Below are positions 31,597 through 49,281 of a stretch of 64,000 nucleotides of DNA, piece by piece. The notes under the pieces are model-generated. The model was not told the DNA's origin. It searched no databases and saw nothing but the letters and a program-made list of their open reading frames with translations. The DNA lies in NCBI GenBank assembly GCA_963769935.1, contig CAVYNY010000017.1, positions 96,001 through 160,000 of the forward strand, written 5' to 3'. This stretch comes from an uncultured delta proteobacterium (lineage in GTDB: Bacteria; Desulfobacterota; Desulfobacteria; Desulfobacterales; JAFDCJ01). The position numbers and the translations under genes were made by a program. Numbering within the stretch: the stretch's first letter is position 1; every line of letters begins with the position of its first letter.

Positions 31597-31723
31597 TATC
31601 GGATTCTCCTTCGGGGTTAAGCTGCGGCGCTGCTGCGACGGCTTGAAACTATCATAGTTGCTGTTTTCCTACAACAGGTTCGAGGCTTCTCTCCAAATAA
31701 AATGCTGGAATGTTGGATAAATC

Positions 31724-31835
31724 GGTTAGCCCGTTTGCCGGTTAGCCGGTAGGCCGTTAAGCCTATTTATCGGTTAGCCGGCCAACGGCCCAACGGCCCA
31801 ACGGGCTAACCGGCTAACGGGCCCACGGGTCAACC
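31724..31835. repeat. Inverted array of degenerate octamers (CGGTTAGC/GCTAACGG)
   Basis: GGTTAGCCCGTT... on the left and ...AACGGGCTAACC on the right. Confidence 0.75.
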
Positions 31836-32048: not shown

Positions 32049-32091
32049 GTTTGCCGCCGTCGTGCTCATAAATAGAATGGATTCCATCATC

Positions 32092-32913
32092 ATGCGAAAA
32101 TTTAGTCCAGCAAGACATATACTGTCGATGTTTCTCGGTTTATTTATAGTGCCGGCTTTTTTCGGCATTGCCTGGGGTCATCATGAAAGCATTCCGTGTG
32201 CGACGTGCCATGATAAGACGGCGGAAGAGCTCAAAGATTATGTCCACGACAGTACTAAATTTCCAATCAGTGCGCGCTGTCTTGCCTGCCATGACGGCAG
32301 CATGGATGTATCCGGACTTAATCCGCCTCATGTTATCAACGGCCGGAAGGAATTGGCCGGCGGTTCTTTTTCGCCCACAATTTTTTCCGACACCGTCGGC
32401 CATAATATTCTATCCATTGATCAGGAACAGGGATTGACCCCCCCGGGCGGCGCTTCCCTGGATGATTTTGGCTGTTTAAGCTGCCATGACGCCCACGACA
32501 ACGGAAATTTTCGCAATCTGAAAAAAAAGATAAATGGATACGCAACCTTGGTCGAGGCGGATGGCGACCCGAATTTTCAACAAAACGTTTACATTTCCGG
32601 AATCAACGATTTTTGCGGGGCGTGTCACGAGCGGTTCAACCGCACCCGCAACAGCCGTGGGGCAAGAGGGTGGCGTCAGCATCCTGTGGGAATTACGATA
32701 TCCGGCTCCCGACATGCCGATTTCAACCACTGGTCCAGCCAGTCCGAGCGCATCACCCAGGCCGAATATCCATCGGGAAATTCCTCTGACCTTTACGGAG
32801 CCCAGTTGATCTGTCTTTCATGCCACCGCGCCCATGCCACACCTTATAATAATGCGCTGCGCTGGGATTACAGCCAAAATTCCCAGGGATGTCTGGAATG
32901 TCACCCCTTTTAA
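32092..32913 (+). CDS. Short OmcS-like hexaheme cytochrome c
   Basis: 6 CxxCH; GGSF, GHNI, PPGG, CLSCHDAH, HPVG and CLSCHRAHA motifs colinear with 40689..41873; start approximate. Confidence 0.8.
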   Translation: MRKFSPARHILSMFLGLFIVPAFFGIAWGHHESIPCATCHDKTAEELKDYVHDSTKFPISARCLACHDGSMDVSGLNPPHVINGRKELAGGSFSPTIFSDTVGHNILSIDQEQGLTPPGGASLDDFGCLSCHDAHDNGNFRNLKKKINGYATLVEADGDPNFQQNVYISGINDFCGACHERFNRTRNSRGARGWRQHPVGITISGSRHADFNHWSSQSERITQAEYPSGNSSDLYGAQLICLSCHRAHATPYNNALRWDYSQNSQGCLECHPF

Positions 32914-32970: not shown

Positions 32971-33906
32971 TTACTCCTTAACGGCAAATACCTGTATGCG
33001 GTTGTTGTTCGTATCGGCAATAAAGATGTTCCCGCTCTTGTTGATGCACAGTTGAGAGGGATAATTTAAAAGACCTTCTTTCCAGCCCATCGCCGACAGT
33101 CGCCCCAGGAAGGATCCATCCGGCCCGAGAATGATGACCCTGCTGCCATTGTGGTCGACCAGATACATATGTCCCCGGTTATCGGTGGTTATGGCGGTCG
33201 GAAACCGCACATATTCCTTCAAGCTTTGGGTCAGCGGAGAAAACTCGGCCGAATCCTTGGCCGCCGAAAATACCTTGGCATTGATGCTATCGATCAAGAA
33301 AACCGTTCCTTTAAAATCCACTGTGAGATCCGAGAGGAAACCGTAGGCTTTCGGGAATTTTTTTTGTGCCAGGTATCGGCCCTCAGAGTTCAACACCAGG
33401 ATGCGCTCGGAAAATATATCTAAAATATAGATGTCGTCATTGCGGTCGATACAGAAACTGCGCGGGACATATGTCGGGGAAGGCAGTCCGGTCGGATTCA
33501 GGTCGCCGATAAATGCGCCGGCCGGGGTCAGGCGCACAATTCGGCGTTTTTTGCGGTCGAGCACGAAAATTTCGCCTTTGGAATTTAGCTGCACCCGGGT
33601 CGGATAGGCCAGCTCGGGCATCTTAATTGCCGGCGAGCCGCCGCTGATGGTTTGATCCCGCAATATATAGCGCAGGAGCCGGCCGTTTCCGGTGTCCGCT
33701 ACAATTACATGGGATTGGTCATCACAGGCAATGCCTTCAGGCTGCTTGAGCGGCGTGCCATCCTGGCCGGCGGTGCTCGTCTGAGCGGCATAAATGGTTG
33801 TGATATAGCTGAACTTCAACACTTCGGTCCCGAAAGATGCGTCTGAAATCAACCCGAAACTCAGCGTGGCGGTTATCAGGACAATCGTTTTGATAAATGC
33901 GCTCAT
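32971..33906 (-). CDS. NHL-repeat beta-propeller, exported
   Basis: PEGIA, VADTGNGR, IADTNNNRIQVF; signal peptide from MSAFIK. Confidence 0.9.
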   Translation of the reverse strand: MSAFIKTIVLITATLSFGLISDASFGTEVLKFSYITTIYAAQTSTAGQDGTPLKQPEGIACDDQSHVIVADTGNGRLLRYILRDQTISGGSPAIKMPELAYPTRVQLNSKGEIFVLDRKKRRIVRLTPAGAFIGDLNPTGLPSPTYVPRSFCIDRNDDIYILDIFSERILVLNSEGRYLAQKKFPKAYGFLSDLTVDFKGTVFLIDSINAKVFSAAKDSAEFSPLTQSLKEYVRFPTAITTDNRGHMYLVDHNGSRVIILGPDGSFLGRLSAMGWKEGLLNYPSQLCINKSGNIFIADTNNNRIQVFAVKE

Positions 33907-33919
33907 TGCGGTTGCAGTC

Positions 33920-35239
33920 TCACTTTCTGCGTTCGGGATGGCATTGGATGCACAAGTCATAAGTGGTTTCAAACGGCATCATATTGGGCTTGTTTCCGGT
34001 ACCGCAGGCCTTGTGACAGCTCAGGCATTCTACGGTAAGGTTCTTATCTCTCGGATCAATCACCTTTTCTCCAATCGGGTGGGTGGCATGGGTCTCCCAT
34101 TGATGACATTTACCGCAAATTTTCTCACCGATGGAGAGTTGCGGCGGCATGAGAAGGATATTGTCCGCCGCATGGGGTGCATGACAGGCGGTGCAGTTGC
34201 CCGTTTTTACAGGTTCGCACAAAGTCGTATTTTTGGGATTCTTGATCGACCATTGCTGCAGTCTAACCGTATCTTCATGACATCTGCCGCAGGTTTCGCC
34301 GATGGATTTTTCCAGAAGCTTTTTTTGTTTTGAGCCATGGGGATTGTGGCAGTTCAAACATCCGACTTTGTCCGTCAGCGGCCAGTGCACCCGGCTTTTG
34401 GCGAAAATCGCATCCACCGCATCGCGGTGACATTGCCGGCACAGTTCCGTTCCCTGTTTTTTGGTCCTGGTGGCATTCGGCGAGCCGGCATCGAAATGGC
34501 ATTCGGTGCATTTATTTTCGGCGACCGGAGGATGGACTTGATCGTATAAAATACCGCGGGTATTGGATCCATGCGCGCTGTGGCAGGAGTCGCAGTTCGT
34601 ATCGGCAACAGGGTAGCCCAGGTGTTTGCGTTTAAACGAAAGCTGGTTGGTTTTATGGCATTCCGTGCAGAGGGCCGGAACGACGTTTTTTAACAGATAC
34701 TCCGACCTTGCCGATGCGTGCGGATCGTGGCAGTTGAGGCAGCCTTTGCCCTTCATCAATGGATCGTGTTTGAATCGTACTTCGTTGGTTTGCTTACCGA
34801 CATCCTGGTGGCAATTCACGCACAGCGCATTGCCCGATTTGTTGAGAAGGAAGCTGTTGTCCGACCCGTGGGAATTGTGGCAGGTCTGGCAGTTGCCGTC
34901 AACGACCACCTTATGGATGCTGCGCGCTTTGTCCGGCACGACTTGTTGATGGCAACTGCGGCAAAGCGTATTGACGTCCGAAACTAAAAGATTCTTATGG
35001 CTGGAAGTATGCGGATCATGGCAGGCGGTGCAATCTCCCTTTTTAAGCAGCGGATGCACGGACCGTTGTTTGCTCGTTTTGGCCACGTCCTCGTGGCATT
35101 TCAGGCATTGGGTGCCTTTGGCGCCGGGCTGAAGACTAACCTTATGCTGCGGGTATGCCGGCGCAGCAAAGACCATCGTTAAAATTGTGCCGATTAATAA
35201 AAATCGGGCAGATTTAAGGTTTATAAAGTTTCGTCGCAT
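33920..35239 (-). CDS. 16-heme periplasmic cytochrome c
   Basis: 16 CxxCH counted, paired CxxCHxxH repeats, signal peptide. Confidence 0.9.
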   Translation of the reverse strand: MRRNFINLKSARFLLIGTILTMVFAAPAYPQHKVSLQPGAKGTQCLKCHEDVAKTSKQRSVHPLLKKGDCTACHDPHTSSHKNLLVSDVNTLCRSCHQQVVPDKARSIHKVVVDGNCQTCHNSHGSDNSFLLNKSGNALCVNCHQDVGKQTNEVRFKHDPLMKGKGCLNCHDPHASARSEYLLKNVVPALCTECHKTNQLSFKRKHLGYPVADTNCDSCHSAHGSNTRGILYDQVHPPVAENKCTECHFDAGSPNATRTKKQGTELCRQCHRDAVDAIFAKSRVHWPLTDKVGCLNCHNPHGSKQKKLLEKSIGETCGRCHEDTVRLQQWSIKNPKNTTLCEPVKTGNCTACHAPHAADNILLMPPQLSIGEKICGKCHQWETHATHPIGEKVIDPRDKNLTVECLSCHKACGTGNKPNMMPFETTYDLCIQCHPERRK

Positions 35240-35241
35240 GG

Positions 35242-37317
35242 CTATTCGATAATATGGCAATCCTTACACGTTTTGTCGGCAAACGGCTTGTGGACGACGG
35301 CTTTAAAAAACTTGGGATCTGTAGAGGTATGGGGGTCATGGCATTTGCCGCAATCCATCCGGCCGGCATCGACGCTGAGATGGGCCGTTTGAAAAGAATT
35401 TTTCTTATAGTCATGGCATTTGCCGCACAACAGCTGGATAGGTTGCACCATCAGCGCTCGCTGGGCTGCAAAATGGGGTTTATGACATATTTGGCAATTT
35501 TTGAGATCCGAGGGGGCATGCACGTAAATTTTGGCAGTCGCTGCCATAGCGTCTTTTGCGCCGGCGGCGGGAACCTCGGCTTCAGCAGCCGGTTCTTCCT
35601 CCGGTGGGTACATCCTGGCCTTCAGGTCGCTATGGCAGGTCAGGCAGAGGTCCGGGTAATCCGCCAGCAGAAGATTTTTTAGATTCGCTTTATGCGGACT
35701 GTGACACTTCGTGCACTCGCCGGCGACAACCGGGTCGTGTTTGCTTGCGATGTCTTTTATTTCCTCCCCAGGATCCGTGCCGTGGCAGGAATAGCATAAA
35801 AATCCCTGTTTGGCGACGGTCATTCCGGCAAAATCGCTGCCGTGCGCAGCATGGCATTTAAGACACTTTCCGTTTTTAAAAAACTCATGGTTGGACCCTC
35901 CCACGGCTGCCTTCATCAAGTCGCCATGGCAAGCGGCACACAGTTTCGGGTCGTCTATGGCGGCCACTAGAAGTTTATTGTTCTTTGCGCCATGGGATCG
36001 ATGGCAGGACTCGCATTTTCCTTCGATTACCGGCAGGTGCGTATTCGTCTTCAGGAATTTGACTTCAGCGTCAAAATGACAGGCGTAACAAACCGTGTCG
36101 GTCTTGCCTTTGAGCATCCCGTAGAAATTCGATCCGTGGGGGTTGTGACAGACGTCGCATTTGCCCTCGGAAAAAGGCTCATGTCGGATGTGATCTTTTT
36201 GAGCCTCTTTGGTCTTCGCATGGCAGCCCAGGCATAGCGGCTGCTCTTCGGCCAGCAGAAGTTTTTGGGTTTTGGCCGCGTGTTTTTGATGGCAGGAAAG
36301 ACAGCCCCGGCCATCGGTTACCGCTTTGTGAGGGACGCTTGCCGGTACGTTTTTATTTTCGTGGCAGTCAAAACAGAGCGTATTGCCCGCTTTGACCAGC
36401 AAAACCGGATTCTCCGAAGCATGGGGAGCATGACAGGCAATGCATTTTCCTTCCCGGAAGGGTTGATGTTCGATGGTGCCGCCGGCCTTCAGATCGGCAG
36501 CCTTGTGGCAATCTTCGCAAAGTTGGGCGCCTTTTTGCCTGGTGGCAAAGGGGTTTTGAGACGAGGACGCATTGTGGCATTTTTCACAATCAAGCTTGAC
36601 CACCGGGGAATGCGCGCTGGTTTTTAAAAGCTTAAGTTGAGCCGAGGCGTGAGGGCTGTGACAGCCGGCGCAGGAAGCAGTTTCCACCGGATATCCGCGA
36701 TGGGCAGTTTTGAAAGCGGCCTGTTGGACGTTGTGGCAGGACATACACAGCGGCACTTCTTTCTTCCTGAGAAGATCGGCCTGATCCGAGCTGTGCGAGA
36801 AGTGACAGGTGTCGCAGGAATCTGTCTGCAACGGCTTATGCACCACCTTCTTTTGAAAGGCTTTTTGCGGATGGCACTGGTAGCACAGATCACTGCCGGC
36901 AGCCTTTAAGAGAGGGGTTGTCTGGGACGCATGCGGGTTATGGCAATCGGTGCATTTCCCGGTTTTCAAAGCGGTGTGCACCGCGGCTTTATCCAGTCCG
37001 ATTTTTTCAGGAGGATGGCAGGAATAGCAGAGGTCGTTGCCTTCCCTTTTCAGCAGTAGTTTAGGGATGATGCCGTGTCGCAGGTGGCAGTCTTCGCACT
37101 TTTTTTCCTTGACCACCGCGTGCACATCCTTCATTGCCAGATATTTTGCCGCAAAGTCGCTGTGGCAATCCAGACATTCCTTGCGGGCGAATTTACCCGT
37201 TTGGCGTGAAGGGGCCGGAACGCAGGCGGCTACATAAATAAAAATGCCGGCGGCCAATAGAATGGCGACTCCGGCAGATCCGGACAGCCTCGGTAATGAA
37301 ATCGTGGTTTTCCTCAT
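35242..37317 (-). CDS. 26-heme cytochrome c lipoprotein
   Basis: 26 CxxCH counted; lipobox VAAC. Confidence 0.9.
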   Translation of the reverse strand: MRKTTISLPRLSGSAGVAILLAAGIFIYVAACVPAPSRQTGKFARKECLDCHSDFAAKYLAMKDVHAVVKEKKCEDCHLRHGIIPKLLLKREGNDLCYSCHPPEKIGLDKAAVHTALKTGKCTDCHNPHASQTTPLLKAAGSDLCYQCHPQKAFQKKVVHKPLQTDSCDTCHFSHSSDQADLLRKKEVPLCMSCHNVQQAAFKTAHRGYPVETASCAGCHSPHASAQLKLLKTSAHSPVVKLDCEKCHNASSSQNPFATRQKGAQLCEDCHKAADLKAGGTIEHQPFREGKCIACHAPHASENPVLLVKAGNTLCFDCHENKNVPASVPHKAVTDGRGCLSCHQKHAAKTQKLLLAEEQPLCLGCHAKTKEAQKDHIRHEPFSEGKCDVCHNPHGSNFYGMLKGKTDTVCYACHFDAEVKFLKTNTHLPVIEGKCESCHRSHGAKNNKLLVAAIDDPKLCAACHGDLMKAAVGGSNHEFFKNGKCLKCHAAHGSDFAGMTVAKQGFLCYSCHGTDPGEEIKDIASKHDPVVAGECTKCHSPHKANLKNLLLADYPDLCLTCHSDLKARMYPPEEEPAAEAEVPAAGAKDAMAATAKIYVHAPSDLKNCQICHKPHFAAQRALMVQPIQLLCGKCHDYKKNSFQTAHLSVDAGRMDCGKCHDPHTSTDPKFFKAVVHKPFADKTCKDCHIIE

Positions 37318-37346
37318 TGGATGGTGAATGTTAACCGCAGTATCCT

Positions 37347-39083
37347 TTATCTTTTAAGGTCGGTGCGATAAATTTTAACGGGATAATATGCTTTGAGCTT
37401 TTCGGCCCAAACCTCCACGGACTTTTTCAGTTTATCATCGAAAACCTTTTTGGCAATTTCCTGCTTGACCTCTTCAAAGGGTTGAAGCTGGGCCGGGACG
37501 ACCTGATAGATGTACAGCACATAATACCGGCCCCCGGGGCCTTCATACAGTCTGAAATCACCGGTCTTCGCTCTGGAAACCGCTTTTTGCACATTTTCCG
37601 GCATACTGCTTTCCGTTATCAGACTGCCGTCAAACTTTAAAATTCCTGGGGTATTTTGATCGACCTGACCTTCGGCATTGGAGCCTAGCCAGTTGAAGTC
37701 GGTACCCTTTTTGAGCTTATCGATGGCCGCCACGGCAGCGCTTCTTTGGTCAAATACGAGGCTTTTAATTCTCAACAGCCGGGGGGCGGTGTATTGTTCA
37801 GCGTTTTGGGAATAATAGGTTTTCAAATCCTTCGGTTCAAGCTTAATATCGGGGGCGACAGCCTTGCGGATGAACTCATCGAAGAGCAGAGAAATTTCAT
37901 ATTCCGTAACTTTTTGGCGATATTCGTCTGTTTTATCGAGTCCCTGCTTCAAGGCTTCTTTCAACAGCAGTCGTTTTTGAAGCATTTCTTCCAGGATGTC
38001 GCTTTTTTTGCTGTTGATTCTTTTATTTTTGGCGGCCAATTGGACTCCGTGGTAGAATTTCGCTTCAACGGCCGCGCTGAGGTCTGAAACGGTAATGGGT
38101 TTTTCGCCTTTAATCCGGGCCAGAACTCTTTTGTCCGTCAACAAATTTTCAAATCCCGGCTTTTCAGCTTCGTAGTCCAGCCGGTCTAAAAGCGTTTGAT
38201 CCAATTCAACATATTTTTTTTTCAATTCGCTGTAGTATTGTCTGGCCGCCTTAACTTTCTTCTGGTTAAGTGCCTGCCGCCGCGCTATTTCCTTGGCCTC
38301 CGGGTCCTCATCAGCCGGATAGCGGATATCTTCCAGTTTAAAGACGACAAATCCCTTTTTGCCGATGGAAAGAACCGGGCTGACCGATCCGACTTCCATT
38401 TGCGCCGCAAGCTGGGCCACCGGCAGCGTCAGGTCTTTGCTTTTTACATAATCGGCCCGGTTGTCCGCTTCGCCGATGCCCCAGTCAAGGGCTTTTTGCA
38501 AAACGTCGTCAAAACTGACGCCCGCTTTCAGCTGGGTTTGAATCTGCCTGGCAGCATCTTCCGTTTTCAGCCGAAGCGATTTGATCTTAAACTCCTTTAC
38601 CATGGATTTATAGCGCTGTTCAACCACGTCCTCATCGGCCGTAATATCTTTGACATAGCCTTCAAGCAAAAGCTCCCTGAGGGCTTGTTTTGAGTATGTA
38701 TCCAGCGCCGCTTTAATTTCGGGAAGCTCATCCAGTCCCATGTTCCTTGCTTCCAATACGATCAATCGCGTATTGATCAGGCGCTGCATAATGTCGGAAA
38801 AATCGATCCGGCCGGCTTTTTCTCCCCTGGGCCGGGCGGCATGGGAAGCGGCCACGGCGCGATCCAATTCCTCCAGGCTGATCGGATCGTCATTGACGGT
38901 TGCGACGGCTTCTTTACCGTCAATGATCGGCAATTTCTGATCAGACGCCTTGCCGTAGCCGGCAGCTGCCAGGAGAAAAAAACTGGCCGTCACGATGATC
39001 AGCACTGATGAAACTGGTTTCAGGCGCATTGGATTCCTTTTCGGATGTGCTCTCGTGGGTACACTGAGGCGGAAAAAAGCCAT
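37347..39083 (-). CDS. SurA/PpiC-like peptidyl-prolyl isomerase chaperone (duplicated module)
   Basis: VATVNDDPIS, LIVLEARNMGLD and a second copy VLARIKGEKPIT; alternative start at 39029. Confidence 0.8.
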   Translation of the reverse strand: MAFFRLSVPTRAHPKRNPMRLKPVSSVLIIVTASFFLLAAAGYGKASDQKLPIIDGKEAVATVNDDPISLEELDRAVAASHAARPRGEKAGRIDFSDIMQRLINTRLIVLEARNMGLDELPEIKAALDTYSKQALRELLLEGYVKDITADEDVVEQRYKSMVKEFKIKSLRLKTEDAARQIQTQLKAGVSFDDVLQKALDWGIGEADNRADYVKSKDLTLPVAQLAAQMEVGSVSPVLSIGKKGFVVFKLEDIRYPADEDPEAKEIARRQALNQKKVKAARQYYSELKKKYVELDQTLLDRLDYEAEKPGFENLLTDKRVLARIKGEKPITVSDLSAAVEAKFYHGVQLAAKNKRINSKKSDILEEMLQKRLLLKEALKQGLDKTDEYRQKVTEYEISLLFDEFIRKAVAPDIKLEPKDLKTYYSQNAEQYTAPRLLRIKSLVFDQRSAAVAAIDKLKKGTDFNWLGSNAEGQVDQNTPGILKFDGSLITESSMPENVQKAVSRAKTGDFRLYEGPGGRYYVLYIYQVVPAQLQPFEEVKQEIAKKVFDDKLKKSVEVWAEKLKAYYPVKIYRTDLKR

Positions 39084-39132
39084 GACATATTTCCTAATTA
39101 TTTACAAGCCCAAACTTAAGGGAAATGTTCGA

Positions 39133-39147
39133 GCAATTACTATGCCA
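39133..39147 (-). promoter_or_regulatory. Sigma54 -24/-12 promoter (chaperone-26heme-16heme-NHL operon)
   Basis: TGGCAT-AGTAA-TTGC on the minus strand. Confidence 0.85.
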
Positions 39148-39272
39148 GGTGCAGTTCACCGGCGGAAAACTGCCGACCGCCGCACTAGGAGGGAACCGAC
39201 ATAACCAATAAAATTAATCCACCGATGTAAGAGCTGCCAATTCAATGCTTGGGCGGCGACACCCGCCGCAGG

Positions 39273-39308
39273 TGGTGAAATCACCAAACCGATTTGGCAA
39301 TTTCACCA
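39273..39308. promoter_or_regulatory. Tandem enhancer (sigma54 activator) sites
   Basis: TGGTGAAATCACCA and TGGCAATTTCACCA, 22 bp apart. Confidence 0.8.
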
Positions 39309-39405
39309 TCCTTTATAAACCATGCATTTCGTTTAGTACGCGCTGAATTTTTATAACAATTTGTTATTAAATAACAATCGATCAATGACGCCCCTTGCCG
39401 CCGCG

Positions 39406-39420
39406 TGGCACACTCGTTGC
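39406..39420 (+). promoter_or_regulatory. Sigma54 -24/-12 promoter (NHL-omcS operon)
   Basis: TGGCAC-ACTCG-TTGC, consensus match. Confidence 0.9.
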
Positions 39421-39486
39421 AATTATCGTTGCAATAACTATTGGGACCTGATATCTGGTAATAGCTTGAATTGCAGGATTACCGCG

Positions 39487-40473
39487 ATGAAACGTATGCT
39501 CGACAAAATCAAACACTCCATTTCAGCCGCTCTTCGACCGGCGGTTGTCACATTTTTGTTGAGTGCCGTATGGGTTGCAGGTGTCCCGGCCGAAGTTCAG
39601 GCCGAGGTTCAAACCTCCTTCCTTTACCGGCTGTCCAATTTTTCAGGACCCGTGGCTTCCAATTGGGCAACGATCTCAGTTGATCAAGCCAGAGACGAAA
39701 TTTATGTAACCGACGGCCAGTCGGGCATTATCCGGATTTATAATGATCGGGGCATGGAGGTTTATCGTTTTGGCGATGACTGGAATTCAGGCAGCCTCCT
39801 GTTGGCAGCCGCCGCCCGAAATGATGGAAACATTCTCGTCTTGACCCGCAGGTTCTCCGCAAATTCAATTGTGCTCTGCAATTTCAGAGGCGAGTTTCTG
39901 GCCGTACTTGCTTTGCAAGACTTCCCCCCCGATTTTTCGGGTTTTTCACCGACAGACATGGTTTACCGAGACAGACGGCTTTACCTGCTGGATAATAATT
40001 TACTGCGGCTGGCCGTCACCGATTCCAACGGTTATTTCATGGCCGGCTACGATCTCGGCGCGCTGTTGAAGATCGACGATAATAAGCGAATGGCAACCCA
40101 GCTCGGCGGGTTCAGCGTGGATCACGCTGGGAACATATACTTTACCGTGCCGGTGCTTTTTACAGCCTTTAAACTTTCGCCGGACGGTAAGCTGGCAAGC
40201 TTCGGCAAGCCGGGAAGCGCTCCCGGCCGGTTTAACAATCTGGGGGGAATTGTCGCCGATGACCAGGGCTATATTTATGTGGCGGACCGGTTAAAGTCGG
40301 TTGTCATCATATTTGATAAAGATTTCAAGTTCGTGAATGAGTTCGGTTATCGCGGACGCCGGCCGTATAATCTGATAGCTCCCAATGATTTGGATCTGGA
40401 TGCCGCCGGCCGGCTGTATGTGTCCCAGCTGGCCAGTATCGGCGTCAGCGTCTTTAAAATTATCTACCAGTAG
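39487..40473 (+). CDS. NHL-repeat beta-propeller upstream of omcS
   Basis: FGKPGSAPGRF, IYVADRLKS, EFGYRG; the ATG at 39487 lies downstream of the promoter. Confidence 0.88.
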   Translation: MKRMLDKIKHSISAALRPAVVTFLLSAVWVAGVPAEVQAEVQTSFLYRLSNFSGPVASNWATISVDQARDEIYVTDGQSGIIRIYNDRGMEVYRFGDDWNSGSLLLAAAARNDGNILVLTRRFSANSIVLCNFRGEFLAVLALQDFPPDFSGFSPTDMVYRDRRLYLLDNNLLRLAVTDSNGYFMAGYDLGALLKIDDNKRMATQLGGFSVDHAGNIYFTVPVLFTAFKLSPDGKLASFGKPGSAPGRFNNLGGIVADDQGYIYVADRLKSVVIIFDKDFKFVNEFGYRGRRPYNLIAPNDLDLDAAGRLYVSQLASIGVSVFKIIYQ

Positions 40474-40576
40474 CTTCAAACATCTGTAGAAGCTGCCGGA
40501 AAAAAGGAGGTGATGAAACTCAGGTAGGGATAAGGATTTTTTTTGGTTTCCGAATTTTAACGGTCGATACAAAATT

Positions 40577-40664
40577 TTCCCTCCGAAAAAGGTAAACCCA
40601 TCGAAAGGTGGGGTCACAAAGCCGACGGGTCCTCATTAACGGGGGACGGCCGGGCTGCCGGGAA
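40577..40664 (+). ncRNA. c-di-GMP-I (GEMM-I) riboswitch
   Basis: GGTAAACCCATC-GAAA-GGTGGGGTCACAAAGCC..GGGTCC..GGACGGCCGGGCTGCCG: P2 with GNRA loop, CAAAG junction, P3; 25 nt before the omcS ATG. Confidence 0.9.
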
Positions 40665-40688
40665 GATGAAGATAAGGAGAACAACTGG

Positions 40689-41873
40689 ATGAAAACAATT
40701 AAATTATGCTTAGCCATGATGGCCGCGGTCCTGCTGTCCTTCGGATTAAGTACCGCGGCCCTGGCCTTCCACAACGGCGGCGTGGCGCACTGTGACGGCT
40801 GCCATACCATGCACAACTCGGAAAACGGCCAATCCATCATTGAAGGGGGAGTTGTCGGCGTAACCGGCGACTACCTGACCAAGGGCACCGACCCCGGCTC
40901 CACGTGTTTGACCTGTCACGCGGGAAGCGGCAGCTACCATGTACTCAGCGATGACGGCTCCAACCAGACCCCGGGCGGCGATTTCTACTGGCTGACCAAA
41001 ACTTTCAGCTATCCGGTGCGCAGCAGCACTGTAACCCGCCACGGGTACAACTTCGGGCACACGATCATCGCCGCAGATTTCGGTTTTTTGACTCCGGACC
41101 CCGATCTGGCTCAAGCCCCCGGAGGCACCTTTCCATCGGCACTGTTGACCTGCAGCAGCTGTCATGACCCGCACGGTGTCAAGGTTAACCGGACCGGACC
41201 CATTGCCGGATCAGGCTCCTACGGTAACGCACCTCCGCCCGGCGCGGATCTGGGAAATTATCGGCTTCTGGGCGACATCGGATACCGGCCGGCGAGCGGC
41301 ATCGTGACATTTACAAACTCGCCGCCGATCGCCGCCACCACCTCAATTGCTCCCAATCCAGAGAGCGACAGCAACCACACCGACTACGGCAAGGGCATGT
41401 CCGAATGGTGCTCCAACTGCCACACGGCTTTTTTGGCACCCGGGGGGGCGGGACAGCATAAGCATCCGGCCGGCAATACCTCCGGCCTGGGCGCCGCCGG
41501 CATTTTCAATAACTACAACAGCTATGTCAAGACAGGCGATTTAACGGGAAATGCCGCAACCTCTTACCTGGCGCTGGTGCCTTTTGAAAGGCAGATCTCG
41601 GATTCGACGCTGTTAGATTCGCACAGTACCCAGGGACCGGATGGAAGTTCGAACGTTATGTGCCTGTCGTGCCATCGGGCCCATATTTCGGCTTTTCCGA
41701 ACTCGGGGCGCTGGGATTTCGAAACCGAACTGCTGGTCAATTCCCATCCGCAGGATACCGATACGGGAGCAATTGCCGGGGATCAGCTGGCCAGCTACTA
41801 CGGCCGGGATATTGCGACCGTTTTCGATCCCGAGCAGCGGAGTCTGTGCAACAAATGCCACGTCAAGGACTAA
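40689..41873 (+). CDS. omcS: OmcS-family hexaheme nanowire cytochrome
   Basis: Mature start FHNGGVAHCDGCHTMHNS, TPGGDF, APGGTFP, CSSCHDPHG, GMSEWCSNCH, YNSYVKTGDLTG, CLSCHRAH, C-terminus QRSLCNKCHVKD; closely parallels Geobacter OmcS/OmcT. Confidence 0.93.
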   Translation: MKTIKLCLAMMAAVLLSFGLSTAALAFHNGGVAHCDGCHTMHNSENGQSIIEGGVVGVTGDYLTKGTDPGSTCLTCHAGSGSYHVLSDDGSNQTPGGDFYWLTKTFSYPVRSSTVTRHGYNFGHTIIAADFGFLTPDPDLAQAPGGTFPSALLTCSSCHDPHGVKVNRTGPIAGSGSYGNAPPPGADLGNYRLLGDIGYRPASGIVTFTNSPPIAATTSIAPNPESDSNHTDYGKGMSEWCSNCHTAFLAPGGAGQHKHPAGNTSGLGAAGIFNNYNSYVKTGDLTGNAATSYLALVPFERQISDSTLLDSHSTQGPDGSSNVMCLSCHRAHISAFPNSGRWDFETELLVNSHPQDTDTGAIAGDQLASYYGRDIATVFDPEQRSLCNKCHVKD

Positions 41874-41895
41874 CCTGAATAATCCAGGCAAGCAT

Positions 41896-41932
41896 AAATG
41901 GCTGGCGGCGCTCTGCCGCCGGCTATTTTTTT
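41896..41932 (+). terminator. Rho-independent terminator after omcS
   Basis: AAATGGCTGGCGGC-GCTCT-GCCGCCGGCTATTTTTTT. Confidence 0.85.
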
Positions 41933-42058
41933 GACTGAATTGGGCATTGACGGTATATTATGATTGATGCTATCCAATCACCGTCGGTATGTAGATATCC
42001 CATTTTTTCAAGGTTGGATTGAAGCCCCCCTTTTCTGCCCCTAAAGGAGGTCAGGCTT

Positions 42059-43489
42059 TTGAAGATGCCGCGGCTGAATCGATATTTTGTTTTTTTGCTG
42101 GCTGTGCTTATCGGCGGCTGTTTTCCCCTCGAACCGGACGTTGACGTTGCCGTCCTTAAAATGCCCCTGGGACAGGATGGCGAAGTGATTTTATACCTGC
42201 AGCAGCTGCCGCCGGAAGCCGACAAGCTTCGCTTTGATATCGACGGGATTTCCGCCGTAAGGGATGACGGCTCGGTGGTGCCCTTATCCCTTTCCCTGAC
42301 CGGCCTGAAAGGCGCAGATCTCGCGGGGCTTCAAAAATTGATGGCAAGCGGGGTTCTGACCCCGGGCCATTACACCGGACTCTCCATCCGGATCAAGCAG
42401 GCCTGGGTCGAGACCGCCGAAGGTGAGGCCGCGCTGAAAGTTCCCGAGGAACCGCTGAGCGTGGCGCATCCCTTCGACGTGGCCCGGGAAAAAGCCTCGG
42501 CCCTGTTTCTGACGCTTAATCCCGGCCGGCAGATTACGGGGGAGAATCGATTTGCGCCTGTTTTCAGCCTGGCGTCAGCCGGCCAATTGCTGATCAATCT
42601 CACCGCTCTCGTCAGCAACCCCGAAACCAATCTCATCACAGTTTTCAACAAAGCGACCATGCAGGTGGCCGATGCGATTGCCGCCGGCCAGGGACCCATG
42701 GCACTGGCCCTCGACCAGCTCCGGGGCCTGGTGTATGCAACGGTTGCGCGGGATGACGCCATTTTGGCGATCGACGTCTTCAAACGGCAGATTATCAACA
42801 GGCTGAAACTCAATTTCAGGGACAATCCGGTCGATTTGGTCCTGACCCCCGACGGCCGGCGGCTGGTGTCGGTTAACCACGACTCCAATACGGTCAGCCT
42901 TATCGATGCCTTCTCGATGACGGAGGAAAGAAGAATCAGGGTCGGTGAGGGGCCGGCCGCTGCGGTTATGGACCCATCGGGTTCAAGGGTCTACATTTTA
43001 AATACGCGCTCGCGATCGATTTCGGTGGTGGATCTGTCCCAAAACACCCTGGTGGTTACGATCGGCGTCGAGGCGTCTCCGCTGAGAGGCACGTTTAATC
43101 GTGAAGGCGATATGCTATTTGTTATCAGCGGCGATTCACCTTACCTCACCGCCATCGATCGATCCCGGCTGGCCGTCACTGGAAAAATTTTTGTGGGGAC
43201 GGGGGCTGTTTCCATAAAGGCCGACAATCAAAGCGGTCTGCTCTATGTCGGCCGCAAGACCGGCGGCGAAATCGCCGTCATCGAACCGTCTTCTTCGATG
43301 TTTGTCGACACATTTCAGGTCGGCGGCAGGCCGGTGTTCCTGGCGATTGACGAGCAGGAGAGATCGCTGTTTGCGGCGCTTTCCGACCGTAAAATCCTTC
43401 AGAAAATCAATCTCATCAGCAAGAAGGTCGTTGCTGAAATAGAAGTGGGGAAGGGGGCTTACGCAATTGTGGTCATGGGCGAGAGGTAG
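42059..43489 (+). CDS. Lipoprotein with beta-sandwich N-domain and YVTN/YncE beta-propeller
   Basis: Lipobox IGGC; repeats VSVNHDSNTVSLID, RIRVGEGP, EIEVGKG. Confidence 0.8.
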   Translation: MKMPRLNRYFVFLLAVLIGGCFPLEPDVDVAVLKMPLGQDGEVILYLQQLPPEADKLRFDIDGISAVRDDGSVVPLSLSLTGLKGADLAGLQKLMASGVLTPGHYTGLSIRIKQAWVETAEGEAALKVPEEPLSVAHPFDVAREKASALFLTLNPGRQITGENRFAPVFSLASAGQLLINLTALVSNPETNLITVFNKATMQVADAIAAGQGPMALALDQLRGLVYATVARDDAILAIDVFKRQIINRLKLNFRDNPVDLVLTPDGRRLVSVNHDSNTVSLIDAFSMTEERRIRVGEGPAAAVMDPSGSRVYILNTRSRSISVVDLSQNTLVVTIGVEASPLRGTFNREGDMLFVISGDSPYLTAIDRSRLAVTGKIFVGTGAVSIKADNQSGLLYVGRKTGGEIAVIEPSSSMFVDTFQVGGRPVFLAIDEQERSLFAALSDRKILQKINLISKKVVAEIEVGKGAYAIVVMGER

Positions 43490-43492
43490 GAT

Positions 43493-45688
43493 ATGGGCCG
43501 GACGATTTTCCCTTGTATCTGTCTGATTGCGATTTTCTTTTGGATCCATGCCCAATTGGGTTCAAGCGCCAGGGCCGACAGCGTGGACTTTAATACCGAC
43601 CATCGGTATATCGATTCCAGAGGCACGACCAAATTTAAACTTACCGGGGAAAATCTCGATACCAATTATGAGCAATTTAATCAGCTCTACAATCTTAACC
43701 TTTCAAAAAACATTTATCCTTATCTGCTTTTTAACAGTGGAACCGTATACCAGATAAATTCAACCTCGTCTTCAAGCGGAGACAACAACGTCGATACCGA
43801 GGAGAAGATTCTGACTCCCTTTGCCGAACTGAACCTTACCAATCCGATATACCAGGCCGGCCTTGCCTATCACAAAAGAAGAATCGAGGAAGATGTAACC
43901 GATGTGCCTGATACCCGGGCAGACCGCGATGAAATCACCGGGACGCTGGGGATGAACCCCCCTTCCGACTTGTTTCCGGATTGGAGCCTGCGCTACAGCG
44001 ATATCCACACCTACGACGATCCGGAAACCCAGGATCAGTTTCAGAAGGTGTGGATGCTGGATACCGCCTACACGCCTTTGAGTGGCCTCTTTCTCGACTA
44101 CTCGTACGCGCGCACCGATACCGAAGAAAAACTTCAGAATTTCGATACGGTCGAACAATCGCATCTGGGTACGGCCGAATATTCCCGCAATTTTTTCAAC
44201 CAACGCCTGTCCATGGACACCTCCTATACGGTCAATTACAGCAAATTTGAGTTTTCGAGAGGCAGCGGTACTTCCGAAGTTCCATTGCTGCGGTTTGCCG
44301 GTCTTTCGTCGCTGAGCAATACACCGGACGACGGCCCGGCGATGGGTACCAACCCGGCTTTAATCGACGGCAATCTGACGGCCTCGGCCGGCCTGAATAT
44401 CGGAACCGCCGGCGATCAGAGCCAGCCGGTCAACATGGGGCTCGATTTCGGATTTGCGATCGATGTGGATACCCTCCATGTATGGGTGGATCGCCGTCCG
44501 ACCAGCACGGTTGTCAACTCTTTTTCCTGGAGTGTTTATACCAGTCCGGATAATACGGATTTCAGCACCTGGACCCTGGTTGCAACCGTGTCCCCAGCCA
44601 ATTTCGGGACGCTCGACAATCGCTTCGAGATATCTTTTCCCCGGGTCAATACGCGGTTTATCAAGGTGGTGACGGCCGCGCTGTCTCCTGTTGTTCCCGG
44701 TGCGGGGAGCTTCCCGAATATCTTTGTCACCGAGTTGCAGGCCTTTATCACGACCTCGGGGACATCCTTCAATACCCAAAGCAGCGTCCTGAATCAAAAC
44801 TATAACCTCGGTCTCAGAGGCAAGCTCAGCGCCAGTACCCTGCTTGGCTATAATCTGTTCTATAACCAGCAGGATACAGATCCGGGCAATATCAAACGCA
44901 CGCAATATACCAACGGTCTTTATTTGAATCATACCTTCAACGATACCTTTTCCGCCAACGCCAACGGTCAACGCACCGACATCTCCAATGACGTTGCGAA
45001 TGGAACCGAGGATTCCTACAATTACACGTATGGGACTTCCCTAAGGGCAAATTGGCTGGCCACGTTCAATCAGGCGCTGACGTTCAGCGGGTCATATGAC
45101 AACACCGTTCTGGGATCATCTTCGCAGAACGCCCTGTTCCTGCGCAATAATGCCATTCTTTATCAAGGCTGGAGTGCGTTTTTGGATACCGGCTACACCT
45201 GGGAAGAGCCTGAAATCGGATCCCGCATATCCAGTGTTATTATCAGACAGGGCACAAACCTGCAGCCGAACCAAAAAATCAGCCTTAATCTAAGTTTTTC
45301 GTATAAGCGAACCATGCAATCCGGCGAAGACGTCGGACCCAGCGACGAAACCAGATGGGACATACAGGGATTTTATATACCGTTTCGCAATCTGTCTTTT
45401 TTTGCCAAAGTAAATTCGGTCTACCGGGATGGTTCGACGGACACATTTCAGAATTACACCGTGAACTGGTCGCCTTTTCCGGATGGCGATCTGCAGTTTT
45501 TTTTCGTTTTTAACGAAATCCTGTTGTCTGAAAGCAACCAGGAAGAAAGGGTAGTCGGACCGGGTTTGAAATGGACCATCGGTCCGCACATCTCTTTAGA
45601 TATGTCCTACAATTATACGACCAGCGACAACGATACCGAGAAAATTGAATCAAACGTTTTCAGTGCGGATTTAAGGACCCATTTTTAA
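43493..45688 (+). CDS. Large outer-membrane beta-barrel with inserted discoidin-like domain
   Basis: Signal peptide, alternating Y/N/S-rich beta-strands, C-terminal Phe (DLRTHF); central ALIDG..TRFIKV..VTELQA insert. Confidence 0.75.
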   Translation: MGRTIFPCICLIAIFFWIHAQLGSSARADSVDFNTDHRYIDSRGTTKFKLTGENLDTNYEQFNQLYNLNLSKNIYPYLLFNSGTVYQINSTSSSSGDNNVDTEEKILTPFAELNLTNPIYQAGLAYHKRRIEEDVTDVPDTRADRDEITGTLGMNPPSDLFPDWSLRYSDIHTYDDPETQDQFQKVWMLDTAYTPLSGLFLDYSYARTDTEEKLQNFDTVEQSHLGTAEYSRNFFNQRLSMDTSYTVNYSKFEFSRGSGTSEVPLLRFAGLSSLSNTPDDGPAMGTNPALIDGNLTASAGLNIGTAGDQSQPVNMGLDFGFAIDVDTLHVWVDRRPTSTVVNSFSWSVYTSPDNTDFSTWTLVATVSPANFGTLDNRFEISFPRVNTRFIKVVTAALSPVVPGAGSFPNIFVTELQAFITTSGTSFNTQSSVLNQNYNLGLRGKLSASTLLGYNLFYNQQDTDPGNIKRTQYTNGLYLNHTFNDTFSANANGQRTDISNDVANGTEDSYNYTYGTSLRANWLATFNQALTFSGSYDNTVLGSSSQNALFLRNNAILYQGWSAFLDTGYTWEEPEIGSRISSVIIRQGTNLQPNQKISLNLSFSYKRTMQSGEDVGPSDETRWDIQGFYIPFRNLSFFAKVNSVYRDGSTDTFQNYTVNWSPFPDGDLQFFFVFNEILLSESNQEERVVGPGLKWTIGPHISLDMSYNYTTSDNDTEKIESNVFSADLRTHF

Positions 45689-45882
45689 GTCTCACCCGGA
45701 AGCTGGAGGCGTGAATGCCGGCGTGAAGTCAGGCTGGTTTTTCGCAACGGCAAGGGCTTCTTTTTATCGTCATTTTAGCGGGGAATGTCAAAGCAGTTGA
45801 TCGCAAAGGCAAAAGCAGCTATGCTTTAAAAAGCATTTTGCAAAATCAGAGGGCCAAGATACTTTAATACGAGGAAATTAAG

Positions 45883-46476
45883 ATGGTTAGAGCGGCAAAT
45901 CGCACACATTTCAGGCTCTGTCTTTTATCCTTTATCCTTATTTTTTCGGTTGCCTGCGGTTCCAAATACAACATATCCGAAAATTACCATGACCCGGATG
46001 TCGATTTCGCGCTCCTGCGGACTGTGGCCGTGATGCCGTTTTCCAATCTGACCAATGATAAGCTGGCGGGGGAAAGGGTGCGCAGTACTTTTATGAACAG
46101 CCTCCTGTCTACCGGCGCGCTTTATGTGATTCCTCCCGGGGAGGTGGCGCGCGGAATTTCACGGGCTGGAATCGACAACCCATGGGCCCCATCCGGCGAG
46201 GATATCAACAAATTCGCGGCGATTGTCGGTGCCGATTCCGTGATTACCGGGGTTGTCACGGAATATGGGGAGGTACGGTCGGGCGCCGTAACGGCCAATG
46301 TGATATCATTGAGCATGCAAATGCTTGAGAAAGATTCACGCAAAGTCATATGGTCTGCAGCCACTACCAAAGGCGGGATATCCATCTGGGATAGGCTTTT
46401 CGGCGGCGGCGGCCAGCCCATGGAAGATGTAACCCAAGCGGCGGTAGATGATATTATCAATAAACTTTTCTATTAG
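45883..46476 (+). CDS. CsgG/DUF799-like lipoprotein
   Basis: Lipobox SVAC, VAVMPFSNLT, ADSVITGVVTEY, KVIWSA. Confidence 0.75.
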   Translation: MVRAANRTHFRLCLLSFILIFSVACGSKYNISENYHDPDVDFALLRTVAVMPFSNLTNDKLAGERVRSTFMNSLLSTGALYVIPPGEVARGISRAGIDNPWAPSGEDINKFAAIVGADSVITGVVTEYGEVRSGAVTANVISLSMQMLEKDSRKVIWSAATTKGGISIWDRLFGGGGQPMEDVTQAAVDDIINKLFY

Positions 46477-47584
46477 GACGGCTGTCCTTCTGCTTGCATT
46501 TCTGCTTTGCAATTCAAGTGCTGCAGCCCAAAATGACGCGGCCGATGAAGCGGCTGTCCCCAAGACCAGCGGCAGTACTGAACGGCTTAAAATTGCAGTC
46601 TATCCGGTCTCAAACCTCAGCGGAAGCACCGCGCCGCTTGCCGCCATAGGCCTGCAGCTGATCGGGGAGCTTAAAGATTCGGACGCCACCCTCATCGAGG
46701 GTGACGTCCTTGACAGCGTCATTACCAAATACCGTGTTCGTTACCTGGGCGGTCTTGATAAGGCGACCGCGCAGGCGCTGCGGCGGGATGCCGGGGCCGA
46801 TTGCGTTCTGATAACATCGTTGGAGCTTTACAGTGAAGTAGTTCCCCCCAAAATTGCGTTGACAGCCCGGTTGGTTTCAACCGGAAGTAAGACGGAAATT
46901 CTATGGATCGATGGTATCGGCCTGGCCGGTGACGACGCTCCCGGGCTTCTGGCGCATGGGTTGGTCGAAGACCCCCTGATGCTGATGAGAAGAGCCGTTC
47001 ATCGCCTGGCACAATCCCTGACAGTTTTTCTATCCGGGCAGGGGAAACGGGTGAATTCCCGGTCGCCCCAGAAAAAGTTCGCTCCCGAGGTCATCTACCG
47101 TAAAGATGTCCTGGCGGGCGACAAGACTTATAGAGTGGCGGTTGTGCCCTTTTTCAACCCGAGTGCCCGCACCTTCGCCGGAGAGATCCTGGCGCTGCAT
47201 TTTGTCAGACAGCTATGGGCGCTTGAGAATTTTAAGATCATTGAACCCGGCGTGGTGCGGCAGCAGCTTCTCAAATCAAGGATTATCATGAATAGCGGCA
47301 TTTCCCTGGCCGATGCCGATCTCATTGGCCACGAGTTGAATGCCGATCTCATTCTAAACGGCAAGGTCATTGATTATCAGGACTATCGAGGCTACAGCGG
47401 TATCGTCAAAGTGGATTTCTCGGCCCAGCTCTTCGAACGCGCCAGCCGCGAGGTGGTTTGGTCGGTAAAAAGCTATCATCAGGGGGATGACGGCGTTTTC
47501 TTTTTCGATTGGGGAAAGGTAAATACGGCTTACGCGATGGCCAGCCAGATGGTGCAGCTGGCGGTGGAGGAGATGGGTGAGTAG
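46448..47584 (+). CDS. Tandem CsgG/DUF799-like domain protein
   Basis: IAVYPVSNLS..EILW and VAVVPFFNPS..ADLILNGKVIDY..EVVWS. Confidence 0.7.
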   Translation: MILSINFSIRTAVLLLAFLLCNSSAAAQNDAADEAAVPKTSGSTERLKIAVYPVSNLSGSTAPLAAIGLQLIGELKDSDATLIEGDVLDSVITKYRVRYLGGLDKATAQALRRDAGADCVLITSLELYSEVVPPKIALTARLVSTGSKTEILWIDGIGLAGDDAPGLLAHGLVEDPLMLMRRAVHRLAQSLTVFLSGQGKRVNSRSPQKKFAPEVIYRKDVLAGDKTYRVAVVPFFNPSARTFAGEILALHFVRQLWALENFKIIEPGVVRQQLLKSRIIMNSGISLADADLIGHELNADLILNGKVIDYQDYRGYSGIVKVDFSAQLFERASREVVWSVKSYHQGDDGVFFFDWGKVNTAYAMASQMVQLAVEEMGE

Positions 47585-47712: not shown

Positions 47713-49281
47713 ATGAAGCCCGGTACCCAAAATCCGGTAATAACCCCTTTTCGACCTGAAATGAAAAAATCCTTGCCGTATATTTACGTCCTCGCCTTTT
47801 TTTCAGGTATGTGCATCATGGCCAATGAACTTTGTGCATCCCGACTCGTGGCACCCTATTTCGGTACCTCCTCCTTTGTCTGGACCAACATCATCGGCGT
47901 CATAATGATTGCCCTCTCGGCCGGTTACGTTATCGGCGGGAAGCTCGCCGATCGGAAACCAAGGCTTGGTATCCTGTTGAAGCTGCTCCTGGCTGCTTGT
48001 GTGTTTCTCTTCCTGCTCCCTTTTGTGGTTTACCCCGTTGTCCAGGGGCTCTCATCTTTCTTGGAGAGCTTCAACTCCTCATTTTCGTTCATATTTTTCG
48101 GATCGCTCTTAGCCATAATTTTCCTGTTCTCTCCACCGATCGTGATCTTGGGCATGACCAGTCCTTTCCTTATACGCATTGTTGCCCGGACCGACCACGT
48201 GGGGGGCTCTGTAGGGCGCATTTTCGGCATCTCAACCATCGGGAGCGTCGTTGGAACATTTTTGCCTGTCCTTGTGCTCATTCCGGCCATCGGCACAAGC
48301 AAGACGATCCTGTTCTTTTCCTCAGCCCTCTTCGTCGTCGCCGCTCTGGGTTTCACTGGAAAAACAAGGGCGCTTCTTTCAGTAGCGGCGATCGTGCCGT
48401 TCCTTTTCCCGGTGCCGGACGCGAGGCGAACTCCGGGAAAGATCTACGCGACGGAGTCGTCCTATCAGTATATAGAGGTGTTCGACATAGGCTCTTACCG
48501 TTATCTCGTGTACAACAACGCAGCTGGATTTCAGACGGTCGCCAACAAGAGAAGTCCTCTCACAGGCCTGAACTACTACTACGACTACTATTCTCTCCTC
48601 CCCTTCATTTTTGAGGGCACGCCCAAAAAGGCCCTTATCATAGGCCTGGGGGGCGGCATTATCGCGAACCAGTTGCGCTACTTTCATCCGGAAATCATCG
48701 TAGATGGCGTCGAAATAGACCCGAAGGTCATACAGGTCGCCCGGAAATACTTCGCCCTTAGGTCCGATGCAGATGTATTCAATCAGGACGGACGTATCTT
48801 TGTGACATTGAGCAAAAAAAAATACGACATTGTCATCATCGATGCTTACACACGACAAGTCTACATTCCTTTTCACCTGACAACTGTGGAATTCTTCACG
48901 AAGCTGAAGGATAGACTTTCGGAACAGGGAATTGTCGCAATGAATGTTTCCGCGCCCAGAGAAGACTCGCCGCTCCTGCAGAGCATCATGAACACGCTGC
49001 GGCTTGTGTTCGGTCACGTGTATCTATTCAGAATCCCGATGTCTTACGACAATATCGTGCTCGTCTCAGACAGAAGCTTGGACTTCGGGTTGTTCGGACG
49101 GGCGGCCGGGACCGAACTTCAGGGCATCGCCCAGTTAAGCCGGCCCCTGTTCCGGGAAATCAAAACCAACGGCAAGTACGAACCGCTTACCGACGACCGG
49201 GCTCCCGTCGAACATATGGTGGATTGGGAGATTCTCAAACAGGAAATCAAGGCTGATAAAGCCGGACCCGGTGCCGGCTGA
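47713..49281 (+). CDS. Fused membrane/spermidine synthase-like protein
   Basis: SRLVAPYFGTS, IIGLGGG, VEIDP, DGRIF, IIDAY, LTDDRAPVE; the start may be 47761. Confidence 0.85.
   Translation: MKPGTQNPVITPFRPEMKKSLPYIYVLAFFSGMCIMANELCASRLVAPYFGTSSFVWTNIIGVIMIALSAGYVIGGKLADRKPRLGILLKLLLAACVFLFLLPFVVYPVVQGLSSFLESFNSSFSFIFFGSLLAIIFLFSPPIVILGMTSPFLIRIVARTDHVGGSVGRIFGISTIGSVVGTFLPVLVLIPAIGTSKTILFFSSALFVVAALGFTGKTRALLSVAAIVPFLFPVPDARRTPGKIYATESSYQYIEVFDIGSYRYLVYNNAAGFQTVANKRSPLTGLNYYYDYYSLLPFIFEGTPKKALIIGLGGGIIANQLRYFHPEIIVDGVEIDPKVIQVARKYFALRSDADVFNQDGRIFVTLSKKKYDIVIIDAYTRQVYIPFHLTTVEFFTKLKDRLSEQGIVAMNVSAPREDSPLLQSIMNTLRLVFGHVYLFRIPMSYDNIVLVSDRSLDFGLFGRAAGTELQGIAQLSRPLFREIKTNGKYEPLTDDRAPVEHMVDWEILKQEIKADKAGPGAG

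Follow-up and report, generated by a model that had tools for sequence, protein, structure and literature searches.

A conserved tandem array of palindromes in the genome of an uncultured delta proteobacterium is best read as the enhancer of a new sigma-54 regulon for extracellular electron transfer, predicted to be run by a sensor kinase which likely carries heme c. The array lies between two divergent promoters at 39133-39420 of a 64,000-nucleotide stretch of contig CAVYNY010000017.1, referred to here as the window. In our full reading, to which we assign a probability of roughly 0.7, the array would be the UAS of the activator encoded at 49301-50689 and would drive both promoters of an OmcS/Oet electron-export cluster. 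The sigma-54 enhancer array itself is real and conserved, there is good support for its cognate activator, the predicted binder, and taken on its own the assignment of the array to this activator as its binding site is, on sequence grounds, very probably correct. Whereas the regulon appears undescribed, the way it is thus predicted to work belongs to a familiar type.

The tandem array and its promoters

Two divergent -24/-12 promoters had been claimed for this region in a preliminary description, and both are present with correct GG-N10-GC spacing. The rightward promoter (39406-39420, plus strand), with a predicted start near 39432, faces the arm that carries an NHL protein gene and omcS, and the leftward promoter (39147-39133, minus strand), with a predicted start near 39121, faces the arm of PPIase, 26-heme, 16-heme and NHL genes. 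The spacing is exact at all four -24/-12 sites of the two regions discussed below (two per region), the right promoter is kept in 11 of 12 aligned loci, and rpoN is encoded in the genome (match above the curated cut-off). Control of this region by sigma-70 was considered and rejected: a search for sigma-70-like sites returned none in 39083-39487 and five in 38900-42100, where shuffled sequences gave 2.9 +/- 2.1. Metatranscriptome contigs (four contig-only runs of one study, 90-99% alike) cover both arms and leave 39059-39550 uncovered; because such contigs show neither starts nor strand they were left out of the argument.

The tandem motif, described as having a 22 bp period and lying 133 bp before the rightward promoter, was found exactly at those positions. 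It is composed of two 14 bp dyads, unit 1 (39273-39286), whose palindromic arms are perfect, and unit 2 (39295-39308), which follows 22 bp later; scored against the 12 arm positions of unit 1 they have 0 and 2 mismatches, respectively. Measured from the array start the right promoter is 133 bp away and the left promoter, by the same measure, 161 bp. A possible degenerate third unit in the same 22-bp phase (39251-39264) mismatches at 5 of 12 positions and is not conserved in an alignment of 12 loci. Sites were called throughout by counting mismatches to unit 1 of the window, a measure by which diverged sites would be missed. The AT-rich DNA reported between array and promoters is valid for the right side only, since AT content is 62% from the array to the right promoter, with 85% in the 40-bp stretch at -60 to -20, but 43% on the left side, against 49% for the window.

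Only two tandems with four or fewer total mismatches occur in the 8-Mb genome when periods of 16-29 are allowed, at 39273/39295 and 58764/58786, both with a period of 22, and the array is thus not a product of chance. The second array (58764-58799), with units at 58764 (0 mismatches) and 58786 (3 mismatches), is 19.5 kb from the first and also sits between two -24/-12 promoters, a rightward one 123 bp after the array start (58887-58901, plus strand) and a leftward one 188 bp from the array (58597-58611, minus strand) which differs by one base from that at 39133-39147. When all 1385 -24/-12-like sites of the genome were ranked for an array 100-145 bp upstream, the best were 39406, 58887 and 39147, the last of these through the weak third unit at 39251; the next-best sites have 8 mismatches. 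One further match in the same genome (C21:39920, 5 mismatches) was not counted as a target because its only -24/-12-like site overlaps it. The second copy was absent from the list of the preliminary description, as were the identity of the omcS/oet targets and the CxxCH of the kinase.

Alignment of 12 loci showed invariant columns only in the dyads (positions 2, 3, 6, 12 and 13 of unit 1 and positions 2, 3, 9 and 12 of unit 2), in an IHF-like block and in the core of the right promoter, with a variable spacer between the units. The seven orthologs of the second region have the same conservation pattern, and three of them (L179-L181) carry a third in-phase unit. These data bear on whether the 36-bp element could be a structural palindrome (a hairpin, cruciform or repeat remnant) devoid of any protein-specific role, as the folding of 39265-39316 as single-stranded DNA might suggest (-13 kcal/mol, z -5.5). 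We regard this as very improbable: no such folding is seen for the second copy (z -0.45), for which reason a hairpin or cruciform role was rejected, the dyad positions are conserved whereas the 8-bp spacer is not, the distance to the -24/-12 site is fixed, and there are only two copies in 8 Mb.

Co-occurrence of array and activator

The distribution of the array was compared with that of the activator over 76 omcS loci (78 were fetched and two dropped, their genomes being already represented). Orthologs of the activator, defined by E <= 1e-135 and sharing 48-89% identity, were found in 33 of the 76 genomes. At a cut-off of 8 mismatches, which was picked after seeing the data, 22 of the 33 ortholog-positive loci had an array that started 100-145 bp ahead of a -24/-12 site, versus one of the 43 ortholog-negative ones, the latter genomes having been scanned within their omcS loci only. 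Stricter cut-offs, counted over 24 positions, gave 13/33 versus 0/43 (5 mismatches), 17/33 versus 1/43 (6 mismatches) and 18/33 versus 1/43 (7 mismatches). Moving the search interval to 200-245 bp left 3/33 and 0/43, and to 300-345 bp 1/33 and 0/43, at a cut-off of 8, and 12 shuffled palindromes produced 0-4 matches versus 18 for the real one at a cut-off of 7. Positive loci span the Desulfobacterales, Desulfobulbales, Desulfuromonadales and Nitrospirota, and among the 76 loci those of Geobacterales, Myxococcales and Krumholzibacteriota had neither ortholog nor array. Some of the negative genomes may be misses, since the ortholog search scored only 23-59 candidates per genome; one genome first scored as negative (G476) does contain the activator, in pieces and 8 kb from omcS. 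Of the 11 ortholog-positive omcS loci without an array, some are truncated or have the array elsewhere (L027, L043, L049, L085 and L100). In the cultured carrier Malonomonas rubra (L038) the array is weak, at 9 mismatches.

The association also holds from the side of the regulator. The ortholog often adjoins omcS, and among 20 regions fetched around activator orthologs the array was found before a promoter in 14 when a looser promoter pattern was used, these regions including omcS copies or cytochrome operons missed before in the genomes of L027, L043, L049, L085 and L100. Across 401 genomes sampled from the phylum, 28 gave a match to the activator C-terminus at E <= 1e-22, 9 of the 14 with omcS and 19 of the 387 without. 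Of a second set of 20 regulator-side regions from 18 genomes, 17 of which have no omcS match, 14 contain a true ortholog (conserved helix) and 8 of these carry the array, versus none of the six with more distant activators; at seven or fewer mismatches the count was 5 of 14, and six of the 14 ortholog regions had no array in view. In one of these genomes (locus L226) an array with 0+0 mismatches lies between divergent promoters (111 and 135 bp) before octaheme cytochromes, and in another genome (G615) a further array target is another multiheme protein. The presence of the array beside orthologs in genomes without a close omcS means that it follows the activator and not omcS. The earlier prediction that the array is the site of the 49301-50689 activator is thus supported by co-occurrence, by synteny and by this independence from omcS.

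A different protein, either one of the other 57 sigma-54 activators of the genome or a redox repressor, might nevertheless bind the array, with the two-component system only co-travelling. In favour of this is locus L047 (G709), where an array with 3+3 mismatches stands 112 bp before a promoter in a genome in which no ortholog of activator or kinase was found. Co-inheritance in one mobile block could also yield the association. On the OmcS tree the two traits change 13 and 14 times, and a tree-aware test on 10 independent pairs (4.1 changing the same way, 0.1 opposite, 5.8 with no difference) agrees in direction but is underpowered and not significant (median p 0.125). We nevertheless consider another binder improbable, given that 42 of the 43 ortholog-negative omcS loci have no array, that the array accompanies the activator into genomes without a close omcS and to other cytochrome targets, that the recognition helix is conserved across orthologs along with the site, and that position and tandem spacing fit an enhancer and not a promoter-overlapping operator.

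An order-wide pattern scan was also performed, in which 9 of 301 genomes matched; this count alone is no evidence because a reversed control matched 7. Outside the window's own genome (G000) there were 11 matching places, seven of them with a -24/-12 site in range; the other four (G540, G494, G456 and G493), for which neither a -24/-12 site in range nor an ortholog was found, were treated as chance.

Probable use of the array in two directions

The bidirectional control that had been proposed is likely, though less well supported than the assignment of the activator. A -24/-12 site facing the opposite way is present in 13 of 19 regions, that is, by the strict definition, in 6 of 12 of region 1 and 7 of 7 of region 2, where 0.024 would be expected per region; the spacing on the far side, however, is variable (142-225 bp, as against 107-133 bp on the near side), and 6 of the 12 region-1 orthologs have no left promoter. 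The array may therefore be the activator's site and yet drive the nearer promoter only, here that of the rightward omcS arm, whereas the leftward promoter would depend on another activator, on a weak site of its own such as the 39251 unit, or only on weak activation from solution. The conserved near-side and free far-side spacing, the missing left promoters, a left side without any AT-rich or conserved block (43% AT), and the D. vulgaris orp system, which as described in the available text has two palindromic sites for two promoters (PMC3897727), would all be in keeping with such an arrangement. We think it unlikely, though less so than a different binder, as arrays between two facing-away promoters recur in unrelated contexts (113/129 bp in L223, 111/135 bp in L226 and 122/158 bp in L179) and as the near side switches arms in region 2. 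Furthermore, in many loci of the Desulfuromonadales and Desulfobulbales the PPIase and 26/16-heme genes of the left arm are found downstream of omcS and colinear with it, behind the promoter that carries the array; they therefore belong to the same regulon. Since the left-arm genes are elsewhere colinear with omcS, the back-to-back layout would represent a rearrangement which kept co-regulation by the shared array. It is likely that the array drives both back-to-back promoters.

On the right side the intervening DNA carries an IHF-like site (39354-39366) with 1 mismatch to the E. coli consensus as given in the available text of PMC3897727; it lies 52 bp upstream of the right promoter. In the 12 aligned loci three columns of this block are invariant, 11 of 25 spacers contain a site with no more than one mismatch where shuffles give 3.7, often at -42 or -52, and the genome has 12 genes of the IHF/HU family. 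The array-promoter distances cluster at 120-124 bp; relative to the common value of 121 bp those of the window and L028 are about 10 bp longer and those of L088 and L047 about 10 bp shorter. This clustering is no proof of helical phasing: the phasing statistic does not discriminate between 10.5 bp and periods of 12 or 14 bp, which fit equally well.

Predicted target genes of the two regions

The right arm of the first region begins with a gene for an NHL beta-propeller protein (39487-40473, plus strand), which is followed by a c-di-GMP-I-GGC riboswitch aptamer in the omcS leader (40582-40663, plus strand; 67.3 bits, gathering score 59). The aptamer appears to have a G at position 20, which would make it prefer c-di-GMP to cGAMP and set it apart from the omcS-type switches of Geobacter. 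Downstream lie the gene for a hexaheme OmcS homolog (40689-41873, plus strand; full-length match to PDB 6EF8, E 4e-77, 6 CxxCH) and, with a gene order shared by many omcS loci, those for a YncE-like propeller, a 731-aa putative outer-membrane barrel and two lipoproteins (42059-47584, plus strand). The conserved 731-aa gene, a candidate for the outer-membrane porin OetI, has no Pfam or NCBIfam match, and barrel is a putative label. A strong terminator-like stem just 3' of omcS (41896-41928) would raise omcS message over that of the downstream assembly genes. The left arm (32971-39083, minus strand) encodes a PPIase (start at 39083 or 39029), a 26-heme cytochrome, a 16-heme cytochrome and an NHL propeller, and corresponds to the four-gene core of propeller, 16-heme, 26-heme and PPIase genes described in the available part of Skennerton 2017 (PMC5539420).

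In the second region the left arm comprises pentaheme, NHL and 20-heme genes (53532-58520, minus strand); it precedes the kinase and activator genes, which share its strand. The ORF call at 57543-58619, with its start at 58619, overlaps the leftward promoter at 58597-58611, and the true start is probably 58520. The right arm (59007-64000, plus strand) consists of genes for a membrane-anchored 6-heme protein, cytochrome b, a 3-heme and a 6-heme protein and a second cytochrome b, and continues past the window to a 3-heme gene. We take this nearby membrane cytochrome b/c module to resemble quinone links of the CbcBA type. After the b/c operon, at G000:C17:161700-168000, there are more 7-heme and 20-heme genes together with two cytochrome c maturation-like membrane proteins; no array was noted in this interval beyond the window.

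The activator and its kinase

The predicted binder is a REC-AAA+-HTH sigma-54 activator (49301-50689, minus strand) in which a receiver with acceptor Asp, Walker A, Sigma54_activat and HTH_8 are all present. Its sigma-contact loop is GSFTDA, a departure from GAFTGA that weighs against the full reading; the central F and T of GAFTGA, named as critical in the available text of PMC3162934, are both kept. Among 37 parsed ortholog loops 28 read G[AS]FTDA, four were other xxFTDA forms and five were mis-parsed. The recognition helix is unique among those activators of the genome with a parsable helix (34 of 58), and the C-terminus of the nearest paralog in the genome scores only E 8e-15. The ortholog is interrupted in L120 (G688:C251; one TAG stop) and in L159 (G476:C1; C-terminal piece only), by assembly error or by real loss.

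The sensor kinase (50686-52896, minus strand) is composed of a transmembrane helix, a periplasmic four-helix domain with a CxxCH (residues 89-93), a second transmembrane helix, HAMP, two PAS domains, HisKA and HATPase. The CxxCH, periplasmic and between the two transmembrane helices, is conserved in 32 of 33 orthologs, and the sensor domain probably bears heme c. His41 and a second His directly after the CxxCH are nearly invariant (residues 41 and 89-94) and may serve as axial ligands or in a relay. AlphaFold gives an all-helical model (pLDDT 90), with NarQ as its best, weak, Foldseek match (E 6.5e-4), and the atlas neighbours of the sensor domain are the four-helix families 4HB_MCP_1, CHASE3 and TarH. 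Two or three CxxCH kinase copies or two activator orthologs occur near omcS in L074/G734, L168/G745 and L036/G698. In L078, L105, L184, L223, L225, L226, L229 and others a stand-alone receiver-like gene (about 120 aa) is found next to the pair of kinase and activator or at the array, often on the array's other side; the window's cluster has no such match.

Proposed mechanism

Sigma-54 activators bind their enhancers as dimers, assemble into a ring and reach the promoter through DNA looping. In the mechanism which we propose, the periplasmic four-helix domain of the kinase, probably with heme c, would sense a redox-type cue, and the kinase would phosphorylate the activator. Two activator dimers would then bind the dyads two helical turns apart on one face of the DNA and nucleate the AAA+ ring, and bending by IHF at 39354-39366 would allow the ring to reach sigma-54 at 39406. 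The symmetric array would also reach the leftward promoter at 39147. At 58764-58799 the second array would do likewise for the inner-membrane cytochrome b/c operon and, in addition, drive the arm pointing into the kinase and activator genes, a possible positive feedback. Such feedback by read-through is plausible because these two genes follow the left arm on the same strand, because the gap before the kinase is less than 100 bp in L029, and because the kinase/activator pair ends the b/c operon in L179-L181. The c-di-GMP-I riboswitch would act as a second check on omcS.

Comparison with known systems

The closest parallels in layout come from D. vulgaris, whose sigma-54 regulome, in the parts of the sources available (Kazakov 2015, PMC4641369; Rajeev 2011, PMC3333781), likewise has palindromic sites, often as 19-24-bp tandems, upstream of -24/-12 promoters and with the cognate activator nearby. 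In that organism DVU3142 is the predicted regulator of an octaheme cytochrome complex and DVUA0100 that of two divergent operons (PMC4641369, PMC3333781). The present system differs in its targets, the OmcS/Oet conduit, and in its input, a CxxCH four-helix kinase, and no site of the array's pattern is present in parts 1 and 5 of the six parts of the D. vulgaris binding-site table (PMC4641369). In the orp system, as covered by the available text of PMC3897727, one activator, OrpR (DVU2106), coordinates two divergent sigma-54 promoters through palindromic sites, and IHF sites lie 40-80 bp before the start. It differs in having separate activator sites (-131 and -88) for its two promoters, where we find one shared symmetric array, an activator that is 10 kb away and under kinase control, and a layout that is present twice.

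With regard to the genes controlled, the oetABI/omcS DIET cluster shares the four-gene core, the OmcS homolog and the large putative barrel, according to the available text of Skennerton 2017 (PMC5539420) and Murali 2023 (PMC10553843); we group with it the G. sulfurreducens osc operon, cited in the available part of PMC13194489. Unlike that cluster, the one described here consists of two back-to-back arms with a shared array between them. In its main text Murali 2023 contains neither 'sigma' nor 'two-component', and the available text of Skennerton 2017 neither 'promoter' nor 'two-component'. A kinase/response-regulator pair, GSU2507/GSU2506, also adjoins omcS in G. sulfurreducens, according to the available parts of PMC10599522 and PMC11077965, but there GSU2507 has Cache_1 and HAMP domains and GSU2506 contains PAS, as opposed to a four-helix CxxCH kinase and a REC-AAA-HTH regulator. 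A search for the activator C-terminus, run with no positive control, matched none of the 41 genomes scanned from the family to which Geobacter sp. AOG1 belongs. The kinase shares the TM-four-helix-TM-HAMP architecture of NarQ/NarX-type sensors, and it differs from the heme-c sensors of Geobacter and Pseudomonas, which in the sources as available have Cache/PAS folds, in that its CxxCH is placed at the end of helix 2 of a four-helix domain. The site and its regulator are not described in the literature surveyed; supplements, subscription papers and regulon databases beyond it could hold the motif.

The conduit is known from the sulfate-reducing partners of methane-oxidising archaea (PMC5539420, PMC10553843, available text), and a 2025 review states, in its accessible portion, that little is known on the regulation of cytochrome nanowires (PMC12307469). 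For this regulation a concrete predicted site, activator, sensor and target list are now supplied. The array could serve to mark, from sequence, which multiheme cytochromes belong to the conduit regulon, and a heme-c four-helix sensor, if confirmed, would be a candidate means by which cells gauge how reduced or oxidised an external partner or mineral is. A wider and distinctly more tentative proposal is that the heme-c four-helix kinase and the sigma-54 activator, with shared two-way enhancers and positive feedback, may form a master switch for the whole electron chain, from the quinone-linked b/c module through the periplasmic 16/20/26-heme cytochromes to the OmcS nanowire. This switch would travel with the conduit across Thermodesulfobacteriota, Nitrospirota and other phyla, with relatives of the bacterial partners of methane-oxidising archaea among its carriers. 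In Geobacteraceae another pair would take its place, so that it could not have been discovered in the model organism.

Other features of the window

Several further features adjoin the two regions. A fused MFS/spermidine-synthase-like gene (47713-49281) has similar genes near omcS in L028, L079, L087, L101, L174 and L177, and a hexaheme gene (32062-32913) converges on the end of the left arm, its homolog being likewise placed in L031. Low-complexity short-period repeats, perhaps REP-like, occupy intergenic stretches at 53000-53480, 55990-56200, 57200-57480, 61940-62040 and 31700-31830, and such tracts could interrupt read-through into the kinase. Genes for an MFS transporter, a thioredoxin-like protein, an ArsP permease and an ArsR regulator at 25388-29397 form an unrelated arsenic/metal-response-like block.
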